From a virus (lineage: Duplodnaviria; Heunggongvirae; Uroviricota; Caudoviricetes): a stretch of 18,730 nucleotides of DNA. The notes beneath the pieces are model-generated. The model had not been told where the DNA came from and ran no database searches. It worked only from the letters and a program-made list of their open reading frames with translations. This document shows, piece after piece, positions 1,398 through 17,735 of this stretch (position 1 is its first letter; every line of letters begins with the position of its first letter). The stretch lies in the IMG/VR virus record IMGVR_UViG_2695420817_000007; one strand, given 5' to 3'. The position numbers and the translations under genes were made by a program.

Positions 1398-1997
1398 TTA
1401 TGCTTGTTTACTCCTTGATTCCACTGGGGAAGCTGGCCACTCAATATCCGGTGCTCTTGATGTATCAACACGGTTCAGCAGCACTCGATACTTCTTCCAG
1501 GCTTCCAGCAACGAGATTTCTTCCTCCGTTGCGATTTCCAGATCTACAGCATCCTGAAGTGGCGCAATATGCTCACTGGCTACCTGCATCAGGCTGTTTT
1601 TTGTTTCTTCTGCCTCCCGGATCCGGAACAGTTTTTCTGCTTCCGTATCCTTCACCCAGGCTGTGCCGTTCCACTTCTGATATTCCCCTTCCGGCGACGA
1701 CCAGGTAACATTTTCCGGTAACGGACCGAGTTCAGAAATAAATAACGCGTCGCCGGAAGCCACGTCATAAACCGTTTTACCACGATGATCTTCAACGAGA
1801 TGCCAAGACGCCCCATCACTGTTGAAAACAGCCACGAAGCCAGCTGGAATATCTGGCGGAGCAATATCAGTACTATTTGCAGGCAGACCTGTATGAGGTG
1901 GAATGTATGCATCATCTTCACCAATAAATTCATTGGTTCCGACCAGCAGATTATAAATTTTTATGGTTCGTGGTTGTTCACTCATTCTGAATGCCAT
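1398..1997 (-). CDS. G: Tail fibre assembly protein (P2 gpG-like chaperone)
   Basis: 199-aa ORF immediately downstream of the tail fibre gene with 1-nt junction; tail fibre assembly position and size. Confidence 0.8.
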
Positions 1998-7831: not shown

Positions 7832-8099
7832 CTTTTGCAATATCGTTGCGTAGCTGTTCACGTCTGGCCTCTCCGTCCTGATTGCGTTGCTGATTTTCCG
7901 CGCGGAGTTGTGCCAGCACCTGCTGCATATCCTGTACCCCGGCGCTGATGATATTCAGGGTGTCGACGGTACTTTTCAGGGTGCTGGCCTGCGCTTCGTT
8001 TCTGGCGTTCTCCCGGCCCAGTGACCACGACAGACGCATGGATGCTCCCCAGGCGGCAATCAGAAGAAAAGCGACGCCCAGCGTGGGCCAGAGCTTCAT
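7692..8099 (-). CDS. lysB: Rz-like inner-membrane spanin (LysB-like)
   Basis: Track ORF 7692-8243 has an implausible extension overlapping the endolysin gene. The internal Met at 8099 (MKLWPTLGVAFLLIAAWGASM...) gives an N-terminal transmembrane helix then a coiled-coil-like segment (QQVLAQLRAENQQRNQ). Its ATG overlaps the endolysin stop (ATGA). Confidence 0.75.
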   Translation of the reverse strand: MKLWPTLGVAFLLIAAWGASMRLSWSLGRENARNEAQASTLKSTVDTLNIISAGVQDMQQVLAQLRAENQQRNQDGEARREQLRNDIAKDECAHALPDARFTDRLRRHAERATASAVSPAYTADADHTGNASPLP

Positions 8100-8488
8100 G
8101 CCGGATAAACTCCGTGCGGTAACTGAAAATGCGGTCCGTCTTTCAGGGTCTTCCAGTCGCCGCCCCATTCCACCGGAATATTCAGTTCCCGGCTGGCCTG
8201 TCTGAATGCTGCTGCGATTTTTTCGTACAGCGGCCATTCCCATGACACCTGGCTGCCGACATAAGCCACAACATCCACGGCATGCCCCGTAAGGTGGCGG
8301 CTGTTCATGGTCTGGCTCTTACCCGTGGCCACAAGTTGCTTCTGGCGGTAACGGCTGCGCAACCCTTCGGTGATACCAAAATCCACTTCCGAAATTTCCA
8401 GTGCCCGTCGGGTCACTTTCACCAGCTCAGGATTTACGCCCTGCAAATTCTTTTCGCTCCGGCTGCTGAATTTAAATGTGTTGCTCAT
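8096..8488 (-). CDS. Endolysin, peptidase M15 family (L-alanyl-D-glutamate / D-Ala-D-Ala peptidase type)
   Basis: 130 aa; contains the zinc-binding signature SRHLTGHAVD (SxHxxGxAxD); sits between holin and spanins. Confidence 0.85.
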   Translation of the reverse strand: MSNTFKFSSRSEKNLQGVNPELVKVTRRALEISEVDFGITEGLRSRYRQKQLVATGKSQTMNSRHLTGHAVDVVAYVGSQVSWEWPLYEKIAAAFRQASRELNIPVEWGGDWKTLKDGPHFQLPHGVYPA

Positions 8489-8808
8489 TCGTCCTTCTCC
8501 TTCACCCTGCGATTAAAGGCCGCAATAACCTTGTCGCGTGCTTTCTCTGCCCCCATAAAACCGATTGATGCGCCGATAAACGTCACGGCATCTTCAGGAA
8601 AACCGAAGAAGCGCAACGACCCGGCCACGGCCATGGCGAGAACGCCGCACGCCAGCGATCCCGTTACGGTCTGAACCAGTGTTCGTCCGTCATAAAGACT
8701 CATCAGCGCGGAAATGCTGACCGCCGCGCCTGCTGCATACACCGTTGGCAGGTGGTCAAAGAGCCATGCAATAACCTGCTCTGTGATCCCTGTTTGAATG
8801 GTGTTCAC
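8485..8808 (-). CDS. Holin (putative), GTG start
   Basis: Track ORF 8485-9027 has a long improbable N-terminal extension overlapping gene X. A GTG at about 8808, preceded by GGGGGAG, gives a 107-aa membrane protein with hydrophobic segments (VYAAGAAVSISALMSLY, GSLACGVLAMAVAGSL) and a charged C-tail, directly upstream of the endolysin. Confidence 0.65.
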   Translation of the reverse strand: MNTIQTGITEQVIAWLFDHLPTVYAAGAAVSISALMSLYDGRTLVQTVTGSLACGVLAMAVAGSLRFFGFPEDAVTFIGASIGFMGAEKARDKVIAAFNRRVKEKDE

Positions 8809-8810
8809 TG

Positions 8811-9011
8811 CTACTCCCCCCACAACTGAATCATTTCTCGTTTCTTCTTCTCCGGCTCCGGCATCTCCACGTCCTGCCCGGCGTCCAGAAATACCTGCTG
8901 ACAGAGTCCGGGGTTGGCATCCAGCACCTTTTCGGTGACGCCCTGCGTCGTGCCGTAGTACCGGAAACAGAGCGAATCCACGGTGTCGCCTTCCAGTGCC
9001 TTCACTTTCAT
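8811..9011 (-). CDS. X: Tail protein X (P2 gpX-like)
   Basis: 66 aa from the internal Met MKVKALEGDTVDSLCFRYYGTTQGVTEKVLDANPGL..., closely resembling P2 gpX (MKTFALQGDTLDAICVRYYGRTEGVVETVLAANPGL). Confidence 0.85.
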   Translation of the reverse strand: MKVKALEGDTVDSLCFRYYGTTQGVTEKVLDANPGLCQQVFLDAGQDVEMPEPEKKKREMIQLWGE

Positions 9012-9514
9012 CAGCACAACTCCGCAAAGATTCGCGGGCGGCACAGAATGTCAGAGATGGCCCAGCTCACATCGCGCCACAAATCTGATGTCTGTATATC
9101 CAGTGCGTCCGCCCGGCGGTCGCCCTTGTCCGTTGTGTCCGCATCGCGGTAACGCTCCAGAATCAGGGCGCGTGTGGCGGTATAAACAGCATTGCGCCAG
9201 TGCCAGAGATTGACGCTTTCTCCGTTAATTACGGGTGCCGGAACATCGGCCAGCGTCTGATGGCCAGCCGCCTGCTGTTCCTGCTGCCATGCTTCCAGCT
9301 CGCGGGTAACGTGAGCCACCGCCCCGGTGGCGGTATGCAGCAGGCGGGAGGTGGTCACACGGCCCGGCAGTCGTACCGCCAGACGCAGCTCACGCAGCAC
9401 AATATCCGGCCAGAATGCGCCCGCTGAAATACGGGTATCACCATCATCGGTATCGGTGATGTCGTCCTCTGCGGGTCCGGGGTTGGTTCTGGCAACCATA
9501 CTCATGGGGTTCAC
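9011..9514 (-). CDS. L: Head completion/stabilisation protein L
   Basis: 167 aa in the L position between M and X; acidic N-terminus and family-typical length. Confidence 0.8.
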   Translation of the reverse strand: MNPMSMVARTNPGPAEDDITDTDDGDTRISAGAFWPDIVLRELRLAVRLPGRVTTSRLLHTATGAVAHVTRELEAWQQEQQAAGHQTLADVPAPVINGESVNLWHWRNAVYTATRALILERYRDADTTDKGDRRADALDIQTSDLWRDVSWAISDILCRPRIFAELC

Positions 9515-9528
9515 TCCTGAAAAAAATC

Positions 9529-9600
9529 GGGCGGTGGGTGCGCGGTGTAAACGGTCACGGAGTCAAACCGGAACACCGCGCACGCCGCCCGCTGACGGGG
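9529..9600 (-). terminator. Long imperfect hairpin followed by a T-run on the minus strand, between M and L (terminator or attenuator candidate)
   Basis: Arms at about 9537-9557 (cgggcggtgggtgcgcggtgt) and 9582-9600 (acaccgcgcacgccgcccg) are near-complementary. On the minus strand the stem is followed by ATTTTTTTC and then the L ribosome-binding site (GGAGTG) and ATG. Confidence 0.4.
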
Positions 9601-9607
9601 TCAGTCG

Positions 9608-10408
9608 TTAACCGCGCTTCGCCTTCTGCGTCGCGGTGGTTTTTCGTGTTGCAGGCTTCCGCGTTGTCTTTTTACTTTTGCTGCTTTCGTCCTGCGCCTG
9701 CTGTGCGCTGGCGTCTTCTGGTGCGGCTGCGGAATCGGCTTTTTTCAGGGCGCGGGAAAGGGTTGCAATCTCGCGTTTCACACCTGCGTTCGGGTTCAGG
9801 TGCATTGCTTCGCGCAGCAGCTTCAGTGACAGTGCCATGCTGTCCGCATCGCTCAGGCCACGGCGGGCAAAGGCGCACGCCTTGCATAATTTGGCGCGCA
9901 CTTCGTCCGGCATGTCCTGGTCGGTGACAATCTCCCGGAGGGTATCCAGTGGTTCGATAAAGGCGGACAAATCCGCGTCGGCATCCGTCCCGGCCTGCGT
10001 CAGTACCGGGTTGCAGATTTCTTCGGTCAGCACTGTGGCAGCAGTACGGCCAAAGTTATCCGGCATAATGAGGTTATGACGGACCACATACGCACCAATA
10101 CGCAACGCCAGCGGAAGATCGCCGCAGTCAATCGCCCACACCATCAGCGTGGCAATCACTTCATCCTGCTGCCCGCCGTCAGCCTCCAGCGTTCCCTCAA
10201 TCCAGCCGGAAAAATCCGGCAACAACTCTTTTTTGATGGCGGCTTTCGCGCTTCTGGCCTGTACGCCCTTAAGCCGGGCCTGTGCCAGACGCAGACGATA
10301 CAGCACCTCTTCATGCGCGGTACGCGCGGCGTGGTCCACGCCTTCATTCGCCCGGCCTGCGCGCTGTGCCATCACGTTCTGCCAGTGTTGCTGTGCAGGA
10401 GTAATCAT
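9608..10408 (-). CDS. M: Terminase endonuclease (small) subunit M
   Basis: 266 aa; position between N and L; size and N-terminus (MITPAQQHWQNV...) consistent with P2 gpM. Confidence 0.85.
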   Translation of the reverse strand: MITPAQQHWQNVMAQRAGRANEGVDHAARTAHEEVLYRLRLAQARLKGVQARSAKAAIKKELLPDFSGWIEGTLEADGGQQDEVIATLMVWAIDCGDLPLALRIGAYVVRHNLIMPDNFGRTAATVLTEEICNPVLTQAGTDADADLSAFIEPLDTLREIVTDQDMPDEVRAKLCKACAFARRGLSDADSMALSLKLLREAMHLNPNAGVKREIATLSRALKKADSAAAPEDASAQQAQDESSKSKKTTRKPATRKTTATQKAKRG

Positions 10409-10425
10409 TGTTTCTCTCCGTTACA

Positions 10426-10444
10426 GGCGGGCATGATGCCCGCC
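10426..10444. other. Short GC-rich palindrome between N stop and M start
   Basis: ggcgggc-atgat-gcccgcc; no T-run on either strand, so not a canonical terminator. Confidence 0.3.
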
Positions 10445-10453
10445 GTGAGTTGA

Positions 10454-11506
10454 TTAGCTGTCGGCGAACTTCAGGCCAGTGACCATCGCGCACTTGCCAT
10501 AGTCTTCAACGACATAAGCGTCATTGATGGACTGGTAGGTGGCGATGCGGTTGTATTCCGGCTCGTCTTTCATCAGGCGACGCATTGAACCTTTCTGCCA
10601 GTAAATCGACAGGTTGTTGAACGAGGTGATCAGCATCGTTGCATCCGGGAAGAACGGCGCAAGGAACACACCCAGCCCGCCAATGGTGCGCGATGACAGG
10701 ATGAGCTGCCCGGCGAGTAATTCCGCATTGGGATTCTGGCCGCTGATGCTGTTCAGCACGGGCAGACGCAGCGAGTTAAACAGGTTGCGCCCCATAATCA
10801 CCACGAGGTCGTCAGCTTCCTTGTGCCATTCATCCAGCAGGGATGAGCGTGCGTCCTGAACCAGTGCATCAGCATTCGCATACTTACCCGCGTGCGCCAC
10901 GGTGTTGTCCATGTTGCGGGAGGTCAGCGTCACGTCATTCATTACGCGCGCGCTGGCATTGGTTCTGATGTGCTCCAGCCACCCCACGTTAACGTCCTGA
11001 AGCAGCTTGTTGGTGCTGAAGTTGGATTTTTCCGCGTGTGACGTGCCGTTAAAGCCGATCATGATGCGGTCAAGCGCCACCTGTCGGGCAATCTGTGCGC
11101 TGATGCGGGTCTGGAAGTCATTGTGCGCCGCCCAGGCATCAAGCTGCGGATACGAAATAAACGTGTCGTAGTTCACCTGCTCACACTGGTACTGACGGGA
11201 CTTCAGGTCGACAGCGTTAATCGGGTTGCGGCGATCTGTGCCGTCATAACTGGTATTTGTGCGCGCAATCGGCCCGGTGGTGTCCATGAGGACTTTTTCG
11301 CCTTTCTGGTCGGTCACACCGATCACGTTAATTTTTTTTGTAAGTTCGGTGCTATCCTTTGAGGCGTTTTCAAAACGCTGCTGCACCGCGGGTTCCACGG
11401 TAAATCGCGATACCAGTCCAGAAACCGGGATATTGTTAATCGACGCCTGTCGCGTCATGTAGCAGCCCAGCTTGTTACGGGCATTATCTGACATCACCAG
11501 ATTCAT
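10454..11506 (-). CDS. N: Major capsid protein N (P2 family)
   Basis: 350 aa; size and position after scaffold O. Confidence 0.9.
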   Translation of the reverse strand: MNLVMSDNARNKLGCYMTRQASINNIPVSGLVSRFTVEPAVQQRFENASKDSTELTKKINVIGVTDQKGEKVLMDTTGPIARTNTSYDGTDRRNPINAVDLKSRQYQCEQVNYDTFISYPQLDAWAAHNDFQTRISAQIARQVALDRIMIGFNGTSHAEKSNFSTNKLLQDVNVGWLEHIRTNASARVMNDVTLTSRNMDNTVAHAGKYANADALVQDARSSLLDEWHKEADDLVVIMGRNLFNSLRLPVLNSISGQNPNAELLAGQLILSSRTIGGLGVFLAPFFPDATMLITSFNNLSIYWQKGSMRRLMKDEPEYNRIATYQSINDAYVVEDYGKCAMVTGLKFADS

Positions 11507-12520: not shown

Positions 12521-14272
12521 ATGATTCAGGACGCTTTTGTGCGCCAGCGTGCGCGGCAACTTTACTGGCAGGGTTATCCGCCCGCAGAAATATCACGTCT
12601 GATGGGAATAAACCCGAACACGATTTATGCGTGGAAAAAACGCGACCAGTGGGATGAAACACCACCCGTGCAGCGTGTCACGCAGTCCATCGATGCGCGC
12701 CTCATCCAGCTTACTGAAAAACAGAATAAAACAGGTGGTGACTTCAAGGAAATAGACCTGCTGACCCGGCAGCTTAAAAAACTGCATGATGGCCAGCCGG
12801 ATGCGACGGCCACAGGAAAGAAAAGCCGGGCGAAAAAACTCAAAAATCATTTCACGCCGGAACAGATTGCCGCACTGCGGGAAAAAATCATCAGCAGGCT
12901 GGAGTGGCATCAGCGGGGCTGGTTTGACTCTCTGACCCTTTGCAGGGAAGCCGGGATACGTAACAGGATGATCCTGAAATCCCGACAGATTGGAGCGACA
13001 TGGTATTTTGCACAGGAAGCACTGCTGATGGCGCTGCGTGACGATGTGGCGCAACCTTACCAGCGTAACCAGATTTTTTTGTCTGCGTCGCGTCGTCAGG
13101 CGTTCCAGTTTAAAAGCATTATTCAGAAGGCTGCATCTGAAGTTGATGTGGAGCTGAAAGGGGGCGATAAAATCATCCTCTCCAACGGCGCAGAGCTGCA
13201 TTTTCTTGGTACTTCTGCTGCGACGGCACAGTCCTACACGGGCAATTTTTATTTTGATGAATTTTTCTGGGTCAGTCGCTTTGCTGAACTGCGCAAGGTG
13301 GCTGGCGCTATGGCAACCCTCAGCGGACTGCGGCGCACCTACTTCTCCACGCCATCCACCGAAACGCACGAGGCATACGCCTACTGGAACGGCGACCGCT
13401 GGAACGAGAAAAAGGCCACGCATAAACGCCAGCGTTTTTCTGTTGACTGGAAAACGCTGCATAACGGGCTTATCTGCCCTGACCGGACGTGGCGGCAAAT
13501 TGTCACGCTGGAAGATGTGGTTAATCACGGCTGGAAACACACCGATATCGACGAAATTCGTGATGAAAACACCGAAGACGAGTTCCTCAATCTCTATATG
13601 TGTGAGTTTGTCCGCGAAGGGGAATCGGCATTTAACCTGAATATCCTGATTGGCTGCGGTGTTGACGGATACGACGACTGGAAAGACTGGAAACCTTTTG
13701 CTCCCCGCCCGATGGGGAATCGTCCGGTATGGATTGGGTATGACGCAAACGGCAGCAGTGGCAACGGCGACAGCGGCGCTGTGTCCGTGGTGGTTCCTCC
13801 GGCTGTTCCTGGTGGCCGTTTTCGAACGGTGGAGACGCGACGCGTTCAGGGGCTGGAGTTTGAAGAACAGGCCAGAGTCATTGAAGAGTTCACGTGTCGC
13901 TACAACGTGGAACACATCGGCATTGATGTGACGGGCGGGAACGGGGAGGCTGTTTATCAGATAGTGAAGCGGTTTTTCCCTGCTGCTATTCCGTACACCT
14001 TCACGCTGTCATCCAAACGGTCGCTGGTACTGAAAATGCTGCAAATAATGCGTGCCGGACGGTGGGAATACGATCGCGCCGAACGCGAGCTGGTCGCGGC
14101 CTTTAACGCCGTGCGTAAGGTGAAAACACCGGGCGGCTTTATCACTTACGAAACGGACCGCGCGAGGGGGATCAGCCACGGCGACCTTGCGTGGGCAACC
14201 ATGCTTGCTGTCATTAACGAACCAATTGGCGGCGAAGGAGAAAACGAGCGTTTCACGGTTATGGAGTTCTGA
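12521..14272 (+). CDS. P: Terminase ATPase (large) subunit P
   Basis: 583 aa; Walker A-like KSRQIGATWYF; size and position match P2 gpP. Confidence 0.9.
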   Translation: MIQDAFVRQRARQLYWQGYPPAEISRLMGINPNTIYAWKKRDQWDETPPVQRVTQSIDARLIQLTEKQNKTGGDFKEIDLLTRQLKKLHDGQPDATATGKKSRAKKLKNHFTPEQIAALREKIISRLEWHQRGWFDSLTLCREAGIRNRMILKSRQIGATWYFAQEALLMALRDDVAQPYQRNQIFLSASRRQAFQFKSIIQKAASEVDVELKGGDKIILSNGAELHFLGTSAATAQSYTGNFYFDEFFWVSRFAELRKVAGAMATLSGLRRTYFSTPSTETHEAYAYWNGDRWNEKKATHKRQRFSVDWKTLHNGLICPDRTWRQIVTLEDVVNHGWKHTDIDEIRDENTEDEFLNLYMCEFVREGESAFNLNILIGCGVDGYDDWKDWKPFAPRPMGNRPVWIGYDANGSSGNGDSGAVSVVVPPAVPGGRFRTVETRRVQGLEFEEQARVIEEFTCRYNVEHIGIDVTGGNGEAVYQIVKRFFPAAIPYTFTLSSKRSLVLKMLQIMRAGRWEYDRAERELVAAFNAVRKVKTPGGFITYETDRARGISHGDLAWATMLAVINEPIGGEGENERFTVMEF

Positions 14273-15318
14273 TGAGCAGAAAAAATAAAAAAGTGCGCAT
14301 GAGTTCACGCATTGATCTCGCTGATGCGCTCAGGAAAGAATCATCGCTCAGTGCATTCACATTTGATGGTCCTTATCGCCTGACCGGGCATGACCTGCTG
14401 GACAATATGTACTGTGCTGATAACGGGCGGTGGTATGAAACCCCGGTGGACTGGTACGGTCTGGCAAGAGCCGCCCGGCAAACGTCCTGGCATCAGTCTG
14501 CGCTTTACTTTAAGCGCAATGTATTGCTCGGTTGCTACATCCCGCACCCGCTGCTTTCCCGGCAGGATTTCTCGGCGCTGGCGCTGGACTGGTTTGTGTT
14601 CGGTAACGCATTCCTTGAGCTTCGGAGTAATATGCTCGGCGAACCACTTAAATTACGGCACGCACTGGCGAAATACGTGCGACGCGGAAGCGATCTTGAA
14701 TCATGGTGGTATGTGCAGGATGGCAAGGACGCGTTTCAGTTTCGCCCTGGCAAAGTGTGCCACCTGATGAATCCGGACATTAACCAGGAAATTTACGGCA
14801 TGCCGGAATATCTTGGCGCATTACTCTCGGCCAGCCTGTCTCATTCGGCGGACATGTTCAGAAAACTGTATTACGACAACGGATCCCACGCCGGGTGCAT
14901 CATCTACATCGGTGCAGCGCAGGTAAACCGCGAAAGCATGGACTCCCTGAAAGAAACGCTACAGGGGGCACGTGGTGGTGGTGCGTTTAAAAACGTGCTC
15001 ATTCATGCGCCCAACGGGGGCAAAGAGGGGGTGCAAATTTTGCCGTTCCAGCAGATCACCGCAAAGGATGAGTTCATGAATGTTAAGGCGGCATCCCGTG
15101 ATGATGTGCTGGCTGCGCACCGCGTTCCGCCGCAACTGATGGGGGCGATGCCGGGCGAAAAAAGTGCGTTTGGTGATGTGGAGAAGGCCGCGCGGGTTTA
15201 CGCAATTAACGAGCTGATGCCCGTCATGGAGGCCATGAAGCACATCAATGACTGGCTTGGCGAAGAGGTGATCCGCTTTAACCCTTACGCACTGTTAGAT
15301 ACCCAGCCCACATCCTGA
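14272..15318 (+). CDS. Q: Portal protein Q
   Basis: 348 aa; start overlaps the P stop (TGATG); size and position match P2 gpQ. Confidence 0.9.
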   Translation: MSRKNKKVRMSSRIDLADALRKESSLSAFTFDGPYRLTGHDLLDNMYCADNGRWYETPVDWYGLARAARQTSWHQSALYFKRNVLLGCYIPHPLLSRQDFSALALDWFVFGNAFLELRSNMLGEPLKLRHALAKYVRRGSDLESWWYVQDGKDAFQFRPGKVCHLMNPDINQEIYGMPEYLGALLSASLSHSADMFRKLYYDNGSHAGCIIYIGAAQVNRESMDSLKETLQGARGGGAFKNVLIHAPNGGKEGVQILPFQQITAKDEFMNVKAASRDDVLAAHRVPPQLMGAMPGEKSAFGDVEKAARVYAINELMPVMEAMKHINDWLGEEVIRFNPYALLDTQPTS

Positions 15319-15343
15319 CGCGCTTCGCTTGTCTGCTGCTTCG

Positions 15344-15369
15344 CCGGGGCATAAAAAATTTATGCCCCG
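15344..15369. other. Perfect 11-bp inverted repeat hairpin just downstream of Q
   Basis: cggggcataaa-aaaa-tttatgccccg; no adjacent T-run. Possible operon-end structure or packaging-region element. Confidence 0.4.
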
Positions 15370-15772
15370 ACTCTCCAGCTCCTGTATCAGTCAGATAATT
15401 TCACGACGCTTTCCTGCTTATTGCCATCATCGACGGTCAGATTCTTACGCAATCCCACTGCGCTGACTGCATGTTCTCGCCGCCTCAGTGCGATTTTGAC
15501 GGCCTTACCTTTCACCCCATCAAACCAGAATCCCTCACGTATTTTTCACGCTCAGCGTGAGAAATACGGCCATTCTGTTGTATCTCTGCGACATCGTTCA
15601 GGGAATGCTATTTACCCCCTGAAACGCGGGCTGTTCCCCCGTCACCTGCGCGCAGAAAAAACGCGTTTTTTTGTGCACGTACGGATCCTTGACGGATCCA
15701 GCCACCACGCGGGCCGGAAGTACAAAAAGTCGTTCAAAAAAATTGTGCAAACTTGTGCACTATCGTGCAAAC
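15370..15772. other. Non-coding, palindrome- and repeat-rich region in the position of the cos/packaging site
   Basis: No credible ORF. Contains a 15-bp palindrome tcacgctcagcgtga (about 15546-15560), a duplicated acggatcc (about 15681-15699), and four TGTGCA-type motifs (about 15670-15772). The exact P2/186 19-nt cos sequence as I recall it is not present. Confidence 0.35.
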
Positions 15773-15795
15773 AAAAAAAGCGCCTTATCGGCGCT
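15773..15795 (-). terminator. Rho-independent terminator for the minus-strand 89-aa gene
   Basis: agcgcc-ttatc-ggcgct stem-loop preceded on the plus strand by aaaaaaa (a T7 run after the hairpin on the minus strand), 10 bp downstream of the ORF stop at 15805. Confidence 0.65.
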
Positions 15796-15804
15796 TCAAA
15801 AGTA

Positions 15805-16074
15805 TCAATTGTTGCTGTGTATTAATCGCCAACCACGAACATATGCTTCATAGGCATCTCTGTGCCTTACAGTTCCAGCCTGGCTAAACGGAATGTTAGC
15901 TAAAACTAAATCATTCTGAGCCATAGCGCGTCCTTCAAGCGCATCTTTTATGCCTAGCTCAAAAGCACAGGCAGCGCATTTGTGCCGACCTTCTTGTCCT
16001 TGATATTCAGGGAGAGACAGAAATGTTGGATTATAACGATGAGGGTTCTTGCAAATACCTGTTTTAGCCCGCAC
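15805..16074 (-). CDS. Hypothetical protein, 89 aa, accessory gene
   Basis: GTG start with GAGGT ribosome-binding site 7 nt upstream; dedicated terminator downstream; GC about 45%, lower than the phage backbone. No family recognised by eye. Confidence 0.45.
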   Translation of the reverse strand: MRAKTGICKNPHRYNPTFLSLPEYQGQEGRHKCAACAFELGIKDALEGRAMAQNDLVLANIPFSQAGTVRHRDAYEAYVRGWRLIHSNN

Positions 16075-16095
16075 TTTATTTACCTCATAGGAAAA

Positions 16096-16237
16096 ATATG
16101 CGTGCCTTTACAGAGGTGCGTGTAAGCAATAAAATATACGACGCACATTTTGATTTACTTCGGAAGGCACGCATATCAGGTTAAGTGAGTCCGACCGAGT
16201 TTTACGCCCCAATAGTTGCTGCTATTGGGGCGTTTTG
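16096..16237 (+). ncRNA. Candidate structured small RNA or leader: long stem-loop plus intrinsic terminator
   Basis: 13-bp inverted repeat atatgcgtgcctt / aaggcacgcatat (about 16096-16108 and 16164-16176) enclosing an inner gtgcgt/acgcac stem, then a canonical terminator cgccccaatag-ttgctg-ctattggggcg + TTTTG (about 16205-16237). A 28-codon ORF (16098-16184) with an AGGA site is embedded, so a small peptide gene is not excluded. Confidence 0.4.
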
Positions 16238-16413
16238 CATGGACAATGCCGCGCAATTATCTTGTCGCTCACAATGCGAACGATCTTACAAAAAGGCACA
16301 TTACTGTCAAGATAATTGATCGTTTTAATCGATAGATAATAGACAATCTATTTGTTTAACAGATCGATTATTGAAGTAAGTGTGCCAAATGGAATGATAC
16401 TGTCTCTATAAAC

Positions 16414-16455
16414 GTGAGCATTTTCTCTATAAACGTGAGCATTTTTCGCGCAGAT
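16414..16455. repeat. Two tandem 21-bp direct repeats immediately downstream of parR
   Basis: ctctataaacgtgagcatttt repeated twice head-to-tail; ends a few bp before the parR stop at 16460. Confidence 0.8.
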
Positions 16456-16459
16456 GCTT

Positions 16460-16771
16460 TTACTCAGGAAATAACGCCCGGATATTCCCAGCCATCTGGC
16501 TGGTTATCTTAGCCACTGGTGCAGACTGTGCTTCAAACTTTTTTGAGCTGATTTGTGTCACAGGTAACATCTCATCATCAGCCCATGCGGCCAGTCGGTA
16601 AGCCTCTGCCGGATTCGTCTTCAGAAGTGCCAGCCCGGCCAGAAAAGCCACGCGTTGGCCGCTTTTGCGGGCTTCTGGTGTAAGGCTGTCCAGCCAGGCG
16701 CATGCTTCTCCTTCGTTCTTGACGGCAGCTGGCTTCAGATAGAAACTTATTCTTCTGGTTGGTGTCGTCAT
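16460..16771 (-). CDS. parR: ParR-like centromere-binding adaptor (type II partition)
   Basis: 103 aa; N-terminal segment RRISFYLKPA...AWLDSLTPEARKSGQRVAFLAGLAL parallels R1 ParR/StbB (RRTIAFKLNPD...DTLDSIPQGERSRLNRAALTAGLAL) as recalled; directly downstream of parM. Confidence 0.75.
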   Translation of the reverse strand: MTTPTRRISFYLKPAAVKNEGEACAWLDSLTPEARKSGQRVAFLAGLALLKTNPAEAYRLAAWADDEMLPVTQISSKKFEAQSAPVAKITSQMAGNIRALFPE

Positions 16772-16775
16772 TGGT

Positions 16776-17735
16776 TTACTCCTTGTTCATTGCGTACAGC
16801 CCATTAACCAGAGCAAATTGTGGCACTCCGTCCGCGATGAAAGTCGCATTAACTCCGCAGGCTTCGCGGATAGCGGGTGCCACAATCTCCGCCCCGCCAC
16901 CGACAACCATCACCCGCCCGTAACCCGAAAAAACCGCCAGCGCGCGGATCACGCGTTGTTTCAGTGTTTCTTCCTTTTCACGAATAACCGCCATCAGGCT
17001 GGCGTAATGCGCGTCATTGTGGATGTGCTGGCGCAGCCAGGCTTCATCATGGCGATGTTCGATAATGGTATTGGCGATGTGGTGACTGGTGCGCATACCG
17101 TTAGTGGCCATCACCGACAGTACGGCATCGGCCATCAGGGAAACGCCTACGTGTGGATCGCAAAACACCTGGCTGATACCTGCCAGTTGTCCCTGAACCT
17201 TTGCCACATCCAGCGTGGTTCCGCCTAAATCCACAATCAGCAGGGATTCAAACGGACTCATGTCAGCCAGTGCTTTAAAACCAGCCGGAATGGATTCAGG
17301 CATAACCCGTACGTTACGGATAGTGAATGCTTTTCCGTTCTGGTACGCCACCGGGCGCATGACGTTTGCTTTTTTGCGGTTGATGTTGGCCATGTCCGGC
17401 TGTGCGTTTGTGTCGAAATATTCGCTCAGTGGCAGGGTGACAACCACATCCACTTCCTGTGGTGTGATGCCTGATTTGACCAGCGCGTGATGAATGGCAA
17501 TGACATTCACATCGCTGTACTGGTATTGCGTGTCGGTCGTCTGGACAAAGCGATCGCTGACCGGATCAAAACCATAGCGCACGCCATCAAGCATGTAGTT
17601 CGCGGGCTGCGTGCCACCGAACGGCGCAGACCATTCCGACTTGAAGCTGTTCGGGCTGATGGCGTTGCGGCGTTCGCCGTTCTCAGTCCATGCCAGCTTG
17701 ATGTTGGTGGAGCCGTCATCGATACAAATTTTCAT
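16776..17735 (-). CDS. parM: ParM-like actin-family segregation ATPase (type II partition)
   Basis: 319 aa; N-terminal phosphate-1 motif MKICIDDGSTNIKLAW (R1 ParM: MLVFIDDGSTNIKLQW); further matches YSDVNVIAIHHAL, VMPESIPAG, LIVDLGGTTLD, GVSL, FSGY..V.VVGGGAEI, LVNGLY. Confidence 0.9.
   Translation of the reverse strand: MKICIDDGSTNIKLAWTENGERRNAISPNSFKSEWSAPFGGTQPANYMLDGVRYGFDPVSDRFVQTTDTQYQYSDVNVIAIHHALVKSGITPQEVDVVVTLPLSEYFDTNAQPDMANINRKKANVMRPVAYQNGKAFTIRNVRVMPESIPAGFKALADMSPFESLLIVDLGGTTLDVAKVQGQLAGISQVFCDPHVGVSLMADAVLSVMATNGMRTSHHIANTIIEHRHDEAWLRQHIHNDAHYASLMAVIREKEETLKQRVIRALAVFSGYGRVMVVGGGAEIVAPAIREACGVNATFIADGVPQFALVNGLYAMNKE

Follow-up and report, generated by a model that had tools for sequence, protein, structure and literature searches.

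Few restriction-modification systems have been studied as much as those of the DpnII/MboI/Dam type. Some of the other described systems that come closest to the small phage gene presented here are also connected with restriction-modification. Controller (C) proteins are helix-turn-helix dimers. They are ~80-100 aa long, as is the protein described here, and are likewise found inside restriction-modification operons, where their genes often lie immediately upstream of the restriction gene. RalR of the Rac prophage is a small cysteine-rich protein connected with restriction-modification; it is encoded by a moron that also has an antisense small RNA. Most type I toxins, in comparison, are small hydrophobic membrane peptides, SymE and RalR being exceptions. 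The mRNAs of hok, tisB, and zorO have long leaders that sequester the ribosome-binding site. In IS10 (pIN/pOUT), a GATC site is located in the promoter and the convergent antisense RNA-OUT covers the 5' end of the mRNA. RAMA and HARE-HTH are predicted N6-methyladenine readers tied to restriction-modification systems (Iyer, Zhang and Aravind 2016, PMC4738411). They are found in N6-adenine methylase operons and in fusions with HNH, restriction-endonuclease-fold, and ParB-like (DndB) domains (PMC4738411).

The protein analyzed here belongs to none of the RalR, C protein, RAMA/HARE-HTH, and IS10 families. It is encoded in an 18,730-nt stretch of viral DNA (the window) derived from a P2-like prophage of the genus Xuanwuvirus (P88-like). 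Our tentative reading, to which we give a little less than even chances, is that it is an accessory factor of GATC/Dam-linked restriction-modification encoded by a moron under tight regulation, with a layout resembling that of a type I toxin-antitoxin pair. The coding sequence (15805..16074, minus strand) has a GTG start codon (16074-16072) and a TGA stop codon and encodes 89 aa. On the plus strand, the genes for the terminase large subunit (12521-14272) and the portal protein (14272-15318) are followed by the presumed cos region. On the other side, the minus strand carries genes for a ParR-like partition protein (16460-16771) and ParM (16776-17735) with a replication gene beside them. The 89-codon gene is found in a variable cargo slot with portal/cos on one side and parR on the other. 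The initial annotation described this position as a hotspot, and the same portal-parR interval indeed holds unrelated genes in the Xuanwuvirus phages P88, Chuche, and Shae_phiSM. Phage 520873 has the same gene as the window. Identical DNA is found in 166 of 5426 complete E. coli genomes, in every case on the chromosome; strains 503025 and CFSAN051542 are two examples. O157 and O111 strains are among the ~3% of complete E. coli genomes that carry the module.

The gene has its own ribosome-binding site and terminator, as initially annotated. A GAGGT sequence (16082..16086, minus strand) is located 7 nt 5' of the GTG. The intrinsic terminator (15767..15797, minus strand) begins 8 nt past the TGA stop; its 8-bp stem (15797..15777, 5 G-C pairs) with a 5-nt loop is followed by TTTTTTTG, a T-rich tail. 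A second terminator-like hairpin exists beyond it on the same side (15760..15745). The GC content is 0.43-0.46 across 15700-16150 compared to 0.51-0.57 across the structural genes (13000-15400), so that the reported drop below the phage backbone is also reproduced. The gene is not, however, the compact transcription unit it was taken for. The best predicted promoter (16310..16283) is ~200 nt upstream, so the leader passes through what had been noted as a neighboring RNA element, and this element belongs to the module of the gene rather than being a separate feature. The par genes, whose co-occurrence with the gene had been proposed as a check together with that of the RNA element, do not belong to it. 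The gene and its leader are also found in P22-like and lambdoid phages without par genes, and we dropped a functional tie to parMR for this reason. A conserved upstream leader peptide was also considered and rejected, as the 22-codon open reading frame ending 6 nt before the GTG is not kept in other clades.

By sequence, the window protein is a member of PHROG 3941 (E = 6.3e-49, 165 bits, residues 4-89 aligned with positions 1-86 of the 86-position profile). An exhaustive phmmer search gave 172 clusters at 50% identity, and a family profile search gave at least 1228 clusters at 90% identity across phyla. The gene had been called an orphan of no recognizable family. This does not hold, though the family is absent from Pfam, NCBIfam, and PADLOC: none of the three gave an informative match for the window protein, and neither did a Pfam scan of 52 family members. 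All source-given names within the 1228 clusters are "hypothetical protein". The PHROG 3941 entry itself carries no function or context; it mentions neither the restriction-modification link nor the internal repeat nor the antisense RNA described below. Literature searches on DpnII accessory or controller zinc proteins, on GATC-linked type I toxin-antitoxin systems, and on the neighboring DUFs found no description of the family.

The gene is under strong purifying selection. Pairwise dN/dS among diverged phage copies is ~0.02-0.06 (e.g., dN 0.028 with dS 1.6, and dN 0.045 with dS 0.76), and all 33 of the near-identical IMG/VR copies are intact. Two observations could be taken to mean that this is a chance open reading frame or a decaying remnant without function. 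RefSeq leaves it unannotated in many of the E. coli genomes, and three single bases are deleted from the copy in phage 503458. All three deletions are in homopolymer runs of one assembly, though, and are probably assembly or sequencing errors. Against a chance origin, the PHROG match, the more than 1000 clusters across phyla, and the low dN/dS establish a real and conserved gene. These conservation data refute the idea, and its probability is practically nil.

The protein is a tandem duplication of a unit, LPxSQxGxxRHK followed by four residues and AYxxG(Y)xxG. Residues 17-47 are homologous to residues 57-87 (hhalign probability 98.9%, E = 4e-17), and a CxxC pair is retained only in the first copy. 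In the alignment of 52 sequences, C8, H12, Q25, H31, C33, C36, and S64 are at least 90% conserved, while R30, G41, Q65, R70, and H71 are invariant in the family alignments. AlphaFold2 with the 52 sequences gave a confident model (pLDDT 91, pTM 0.84), in which each unit consists of a short and a long helix joined by a loop, and C33 and C36 are at the start of the helix 34-46. C8, H12, C33, and C36 form a putative zinc site of the treble-clef-like kind, and the protein is probably zinc-stabilized, as judged from the conservation of the four putative ligands. A Foldseek search of this model against PDB and BFVD gave nothing below E = 1, and a sequence-profile search of PDB was empty. Remote homology and structure prediction, the first check proposed in the initial annotation, thus yielded a family and a confident model but no match to a known fold. 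With such a predicted fold, the structure of the protein is worth determining.

The window protein is polar (12 K+R, 8 D+E) and has a pI of 9.2. The family is near neutral with a median pI of 6.8. The idea of an acidic DNA mimic was dropped for this reason. The model shows only short amphipathic helices and no hydrophobic span or membrane helix. Pfam scans of the window protein and the 52 members found no helix-turn-helix family. Lar_restr_allev was not matched by the window protein (E up to 10) or by any of the 52 members (E up to 0.01). Weak matches to ribosome modulation factor (RMF, PF04957) were found in four of the 52 members (best E = 2e-4). This candidate was rejected: a profile-profile comparison with 105 RMF sequences gave a probability of only ~10-13% over 12-17 residues, and the likeness comes down to a shared A-x3-GY-x2-G helix motif.

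Elsewhere, the family is embedded in restriction-modification operons. Loci of species-representative genomes were examined by calling genes and clustering the neighbors; 80 loci were taken and 79 were analyzed. Because these loci are the best 80 matches of pattern-based scans, they are not a random sample. Within this sample, 54 of the 79 loci have a restriction-modification gene no more than four genes away. Same-strand gaps are mostly 20 nt or shorter, indicating that these genes form operons. The neighbors include a Dam-family D12 adenine methylase in ~50 loci (PF02086; TIGR00571, 299 bits), an N6_N4 methylase in 34, and a DpnII restriction endonuclease in 31 (PF04556, E = 6e-112). A DUF6996-DUF6997-DUF7226 protein, recognized by PDLC03513, the PADLOC model of a type II restriction enzyme (E = 2e-148), is found in 11 loci, and PDDEXK_11 and another PD-(D/E)XK protein in six loci each. 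Four gene orders are typical: Dam methylase, family gene, DpnII, and N6_N4 methylase; Dam methylase, DpnII, N6_N4 methylase, and family gene; Dam methylase, type II restriction enzyme, and family gene; and family gene, Dam methylase, and PDDEXK_11. The position of the family gene in the operon varies, and it is often the last. Some operons have the N6_N4 methylase alone without the D12 enzyme, and one operon (L020) encodes two family-containing proteins.

The family domain is also fused to other domains (DndB/DpdB-like, WYL, HEPN, HNH, and NOV_C). A twin-unit form, in which all four putative ligands are present in both copies, is fused to NOV_C, which has the restriction-endonuclease fold, or to HNH nucleases. 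In 58 of 83 metagenome loci, these nuclease fusions are located beside D12/N6_N4 methylases together with PDDEXK_11, DpnII, or MutH/Sau3AI-like nucleases. Elsewhere, members of the family are accessory third components of Dam-type (GATC) operons or two-unit fusions to HNH/NOV_C nucleases. The RAMA and HARE-HTH domains share this pattern of contexts, but they have no sequence match in Pfam to the present family and its predicted fold is different.

Methylases of two unrelated families co-occur with the family, as do nucleases of at least four unrelated families, several of which target GATC. The common denominator is the GATC/Dam target and not any single enzyme family. Within the restriction-modification loci, GATC occurs at 0.1-0.5 per 220 nt, compared to ~0.86 expected from base frequency alone. 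This depletion is consistent with GATC-targeting systems.

In phages and plasmids, the gene is mostly solitary. We scanned the window together with 80 viral contigs and seven loci from phages or plasmids, and 83 of these 88 loci have no methylase or restriction enzyme within ~5-6 kb. All of the copies in enterobacterial genomes are solitary. Profiles made from the neighbor clusters found no D12, N6_N4, DpnII, DUF6996/7, PDDEXK_11, or MutH-like open reading frame anywhere in the window; a complete DpnII/Dam-type type II system is therefore ruled out there. In a P22-like Salmonella phage, the gene is located downstream of the one for the cI repressor; in a Providencia phage, it is on the opposite strand between Q and the lysis genes; and in the window, it has cos on one side and par on the other. 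The window gene is a prophage cargo gene (moron), probably transcribed independently. Plasmid copies are known from Vibrio, Aeromonas, Serratia, Kosakonia, E. marmotae, and Lactobacillus, and seven of the 12 plasmid matches are on conjugative plasmids. Vibrio, Aeromonas, Serratia, Kosakonia, and the hosts of the enterobacterial phages are lineages with an orphan Dam.

Such a distribution would suit an anti-restriction or restriction-alleviation factor, functionally like Ral of lambda or Lar of Rac, that shields phage DNA from GATC nucleases by masking GATC or by stimulating a Dam-family methylase (host Dam in enterobacteria). The family is tied to Dam-family methylases whatever the nuclease is, and its solitary copies are carried by enterobacterial phages and by plasmids of Vibrio, Aeromonas, Serratia, and Kosakonia, many of the plasmid matches being conjugative. 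However, the operons with only an N6_N4 methylase make a specific methylase partner unlikely, and the protein lacks the acidic character of the DNA mimics Ocr and ArdA. Phage DNA grown in a Dam+ host is, moreover, already largely protected from DpnII-type enzymes. No anti-defence family was matched in PADLOC, which contains only defence models. We consider an anti-restriction role quite unlikely.

The solitary copies differ from the operon-borne copies in what is found upstream of the gene. A sigma-70 promoter with 10 of 12 matches is predicted in the window on the minus strand (16283..16310), with TTGACA (16310-16305) and TAAGAT (16288-16283) separated by 16 nt. From this promoter, transcription would start near 16276, leaving a 5' leader of ~200 nt (16075..16276, minus strand) predicted from folds, inverted repeats, and the leader alignment. 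The leader includes a GC hairpin and a 13-bp long-range stem (16096-16108 with 16164-16176), and in minimum-free-energy folds of six leaders the ribosome-binding site is buried by leader pairing. One GATC (16282-16285) overlaps the 3' end of the -10 hexamer, another (16318-16321) is 8 nt upstream of the -35 hexamer, and a third is located at 16362-16365. GATC is rare in the window as a whole (40 compared to 65 expected).

This architecture is shared by solitary copies whose sequences have diverged. We compared the upstream regions of 26 distinct solitary copies. A sigma-70 promoter is found ~205 nt 5' of the start codon in diverged copies and ~236 nt in the clade of the window. A GATC 8-10 nt upstream of the -35 hexamer is kept in all but two of the 26 leaders, and several clades have a -10 hexamer that overlaps GATC (TAnGATC). 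The leaders also share the GC-rich hairpin and a long hairpin, TGTAAAG is invariant among them, and their ribosome-binding site is buried by pairing. In the GC-rich hairpin, compensatory changes are found at nine of the ten stem pairs among 22 sequences.

GATC sites on both sides of the window promoter, and an 11-bp perfect dyad that brackets it (16254-16264 and 16308-16318), are what one might expect of a transcription regulator that works like a C protein but is not of the helix-turn-helix type. It would time the restriction enzyme in operons and regulate its own synthesis in phages. In 14 loci the family gene immediately precedes the DpnII gene in the same orientation, which is the usual position of a C gene. 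C proteins have a helix-turn-helix, however, and the family instead has a repeat with a C/H/C/C set, nuclease fusions unusual for a pure regulator, no match to a controller family in Pfam, and a variable place in the operon. The dyad is not conserved in other clades of the leader alignment. Upstream of the restriction-modification operons, GATC is not enriched (0.24 compared to 0.37 per 220 nt), so that, for the operon-borne copies, a simple controller binding GATC operators is unsupported. A controller function is very unlikely.

On the opposite strand, another sigma-70 promoter is predicted (16107..16135, plus strand; TTTACA, 17-nt spacer, TAAAAT at 16130-16135). It would give a cis-antisense RNA of ~95 nt (16142..16237, plus strand; fold z-score -4.2), fully complementary to the middle of the leader. 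The GC hairpin, when read on the opposite strand, becomes the terminator of this RNA (16204-16215 paired with 16222-16233, followed by TTTT). Its U-tract is short, TTTT in the window and CUUUCCC in many others. The antisense -35 hexamer (TGTAAA on the gene strand) is invariant in the 26 leaders, with a TAnnnT -10 after 17 nt in every clade. A second, highly diverged solitary clade from Klebsiella, Citrobacter, and Serratia shares the TTTACA promoter and also has a strong terminator on the opposite strand. GATC sites at the antisense promoter are found only in about half of the clades, and the clade of the window lacks them. The leader/antisense region matched no Rfam family at gathering and E-value thresholds; the only likeness, to ctRNA_pGA1, sar, and Spot 42, is at the level of the terminator and far below threshold.

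This antisense arrangement is specific to solitary copies. Of 67 solitary leaders, 51 have TGTAAA between -27 and -50, but only five of 53 copies beside restriction-modification genes do. Together with the restriction-modification context elsewhere, it fits the earlier guess that the gene is defence, anti-defence, or toxin-type cargo. From the first reading, then, the observation itself and the type of cargo stand, while the orphan status and the compact unit do not. The overall layout of the module is also analogous to that of RalR/RalA. There is no sequence kinship between them, as the absence of a Lar_restr_allev match indicates. RalR acts on type I (EcoKI) systems and the present family is linked to type II GATC systems, and the predicted RNA, unlike RalA, is fully cis-antisense to the 5' leader. 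Another analogy is found in IS10, with its promoter GATC and convergent antisense RNA. Of the GATC sites at the window promoter, one overlaps the -10 hexamer at its 3' end and another precedes the -35 hexamer, and a convergent antisense promoter is predicted. The element and its product differ from those of the present module.

The same arrangement could mean that the module is a true type I toxin-antitoxin system for addiction or abortive infection. The soluble 89-aa protein would then be the toxin, perhaps binding or damaging DNA as RalR does, and the cis-antisense RNA would be the antitoxin, stabilizing the prophage or killing infected cells. The restriction of the convergent promoter and terminator to solitary copies is what one would expect in that case. 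The long leader sequesters the ribosome-binding site in the manner of the hok, tisB, and zorO mRNAs, and the moron slots (after cI, between Q and lysis genes, and next to par) are of the kind that often hosts such modules. The protein itself does not have the properties of a small hydrophobic membrane peptide; being soluble, polar, 89 aa long, and without a membrane helix, it differs from most type I toxins. In ordinary restriction-modification operons, moreover, the same protein is co-transcribed without an antisense partner, which argues against intrinsic toxicity, and the intact state of all the near-identical IMG/VR copies also speaks against a toxin. A toxin-antitoxin module of this kind is unlikely.

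As the GATC/Dam-linked accessory factor that we tentatively favor, the protein would act on GATC-containing or Dam-modified nucleic acid. Three observations point in this direction. The heterogeneous partners share only their target, the conserved residues are kept also in solitary copies in Dam-positive hosts, and the two-fold repeat suits a palindromic site. We find action on GATC nucleic acid more likely than action on one partner enzyme. The idea of a DNA reader is weakened by the lack of GATC enrichment upstream of the operons and by the near-neutral charge of the family, and a role as a protein-protein adaptor would also fit the operon with two family proteins. By acting on such nucleic acid, the protein may modulate the result of restriction or modification directed at GATC. 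Its expression in enterobacterial phages would be driven by the promoter flanked by GATC sites. The transcript would extend through the structured ~200-nt leader in which the ribosome-binding site is buried, and the convergent ~95-nt cis-antisense RNA would oppose it post-transcriptionally. With the ribosome-binding site predicted to be buried and an antisense RNA to oppose the transcript, protein output is probably low and conditional. The promoter, and with it the output, is possibly sensitive to Dam methylation.

A bolder form of this reading is that the family is a previously unrecognized third component of Dam/DpnII-type systems, a zinc domain with a two-fold repeat that would read GATC sites or the state of their methylation. 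It would have been captured by temperate enterobacterial phages, as a solitary gene behind a Dam-sensitive promoter and an antisense switch, either to manipulate GATC restriction or methylation or to kill cells upon a change in methylation. We regard this fuller version as unlikely.

A comparable accessory protein is found neither in Pfam, NCBIfam, and PADLOC nor in the literature that we retrieved. A conserved partner that spans more than 1000 clusters and goes with nucleases of at least four unrelated families would add a new element to restriction-modification biology, whether it regulates, reads the target, or serves in self-protection. In E. coli, the phage copies make it easily accessible to experiment, with one small gene and one predicted small RNA. 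The module could reveal a new mechanism of anti-restriction, exclusion, or toxin-antitoxin action tied to Dam methylation.

The window is poor in GATC, with 40 sites where shuffling gives 65 +/- 7. The regulatory region of the 89-aa gene has three of them, close together at 16282-16365. The restriction-modification loci that carry other members of the family (L013-L092) have 0.1-0.5 GATC per 220 nt where the operons are present, compared with the approximately 0.86 that base frequency alone would predict. Such a low density in the operon loci fits the idea that GATC is avoided as a restriction site.

The predicted promoter of the 89-aa gene is flanked by a perfect inverted repeat of 11 bp (CAATTATCTTG / CAAGATAATTG; 16254-16264 and 16308-16318), which could serve as an operator. 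Judged by eye, this inverted repeat is not conserved in the other clades. The leader, which is the predicted 5' region of the gene, also contains an upstream ORF of 22 codons on the minus strand (16080-16148, ATG to TAA), whose stop codon lies 6 nt ahead of the GTG start. A 1-nt change within a T-run, which some E. coli variants have, joins the upstream ORF to the 89-aa gene, and the product becomes 114 aa long (P0002). The upstream ORF, too, is not conserved in the other clades. The gene also occurs in Escherichia phage 503458 (L259, locus 440-800), where it has three single-base deletions, every one of them in a homopolymer run. The deletions probably arose in assembly and do not mark a pseudogene.

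Other elements exist around the 89-aa gene and elsewhere in the window. Directly downstream of the ParR-like gene are two perfect tandem copies of a 21-mer (TCTCTATAAACGTGAGCATTT, 16403-16444), a candidate parC-type centromere of the ParMR pair. The presumed cos region, which separates the portal gene from the terminator of the 89-aa gene, contains a direct repeat (ACGGATCC) at 15684-15698; its two copies are 3 nt apart, and both include a GATC site. The P2-like tail-fibre region contains a strong match to Rfam IS009 (1456-1654, minus strand; 218 bits against a gathering score of 117).

In Citrobacter, Buttiauxella, and Klebsiella (L031, L032, and L050), a member of the family is found in a small integrative island at about 8000-10900. 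There the family gene, with its antisense promoter, is followed by genes for a 331-aa DUF4062 protein and what is probably an integrase. The DUF4062 protein has no match in PADLOC or NCBIfam. The family gene and the DUF4062 gene could form a two-gene system. In a Chitinophagaceae MAG (L020, 6849-9996), a single DpnII operon encodes two proteins with the family domain. One is a DndB/DpdB-like fusion of 474 aa, and the other, of 279 aa, has two copies of the unit. The presence of two family-domain proteins in a single operon may point to a homotypic role or to one as an adaptor.
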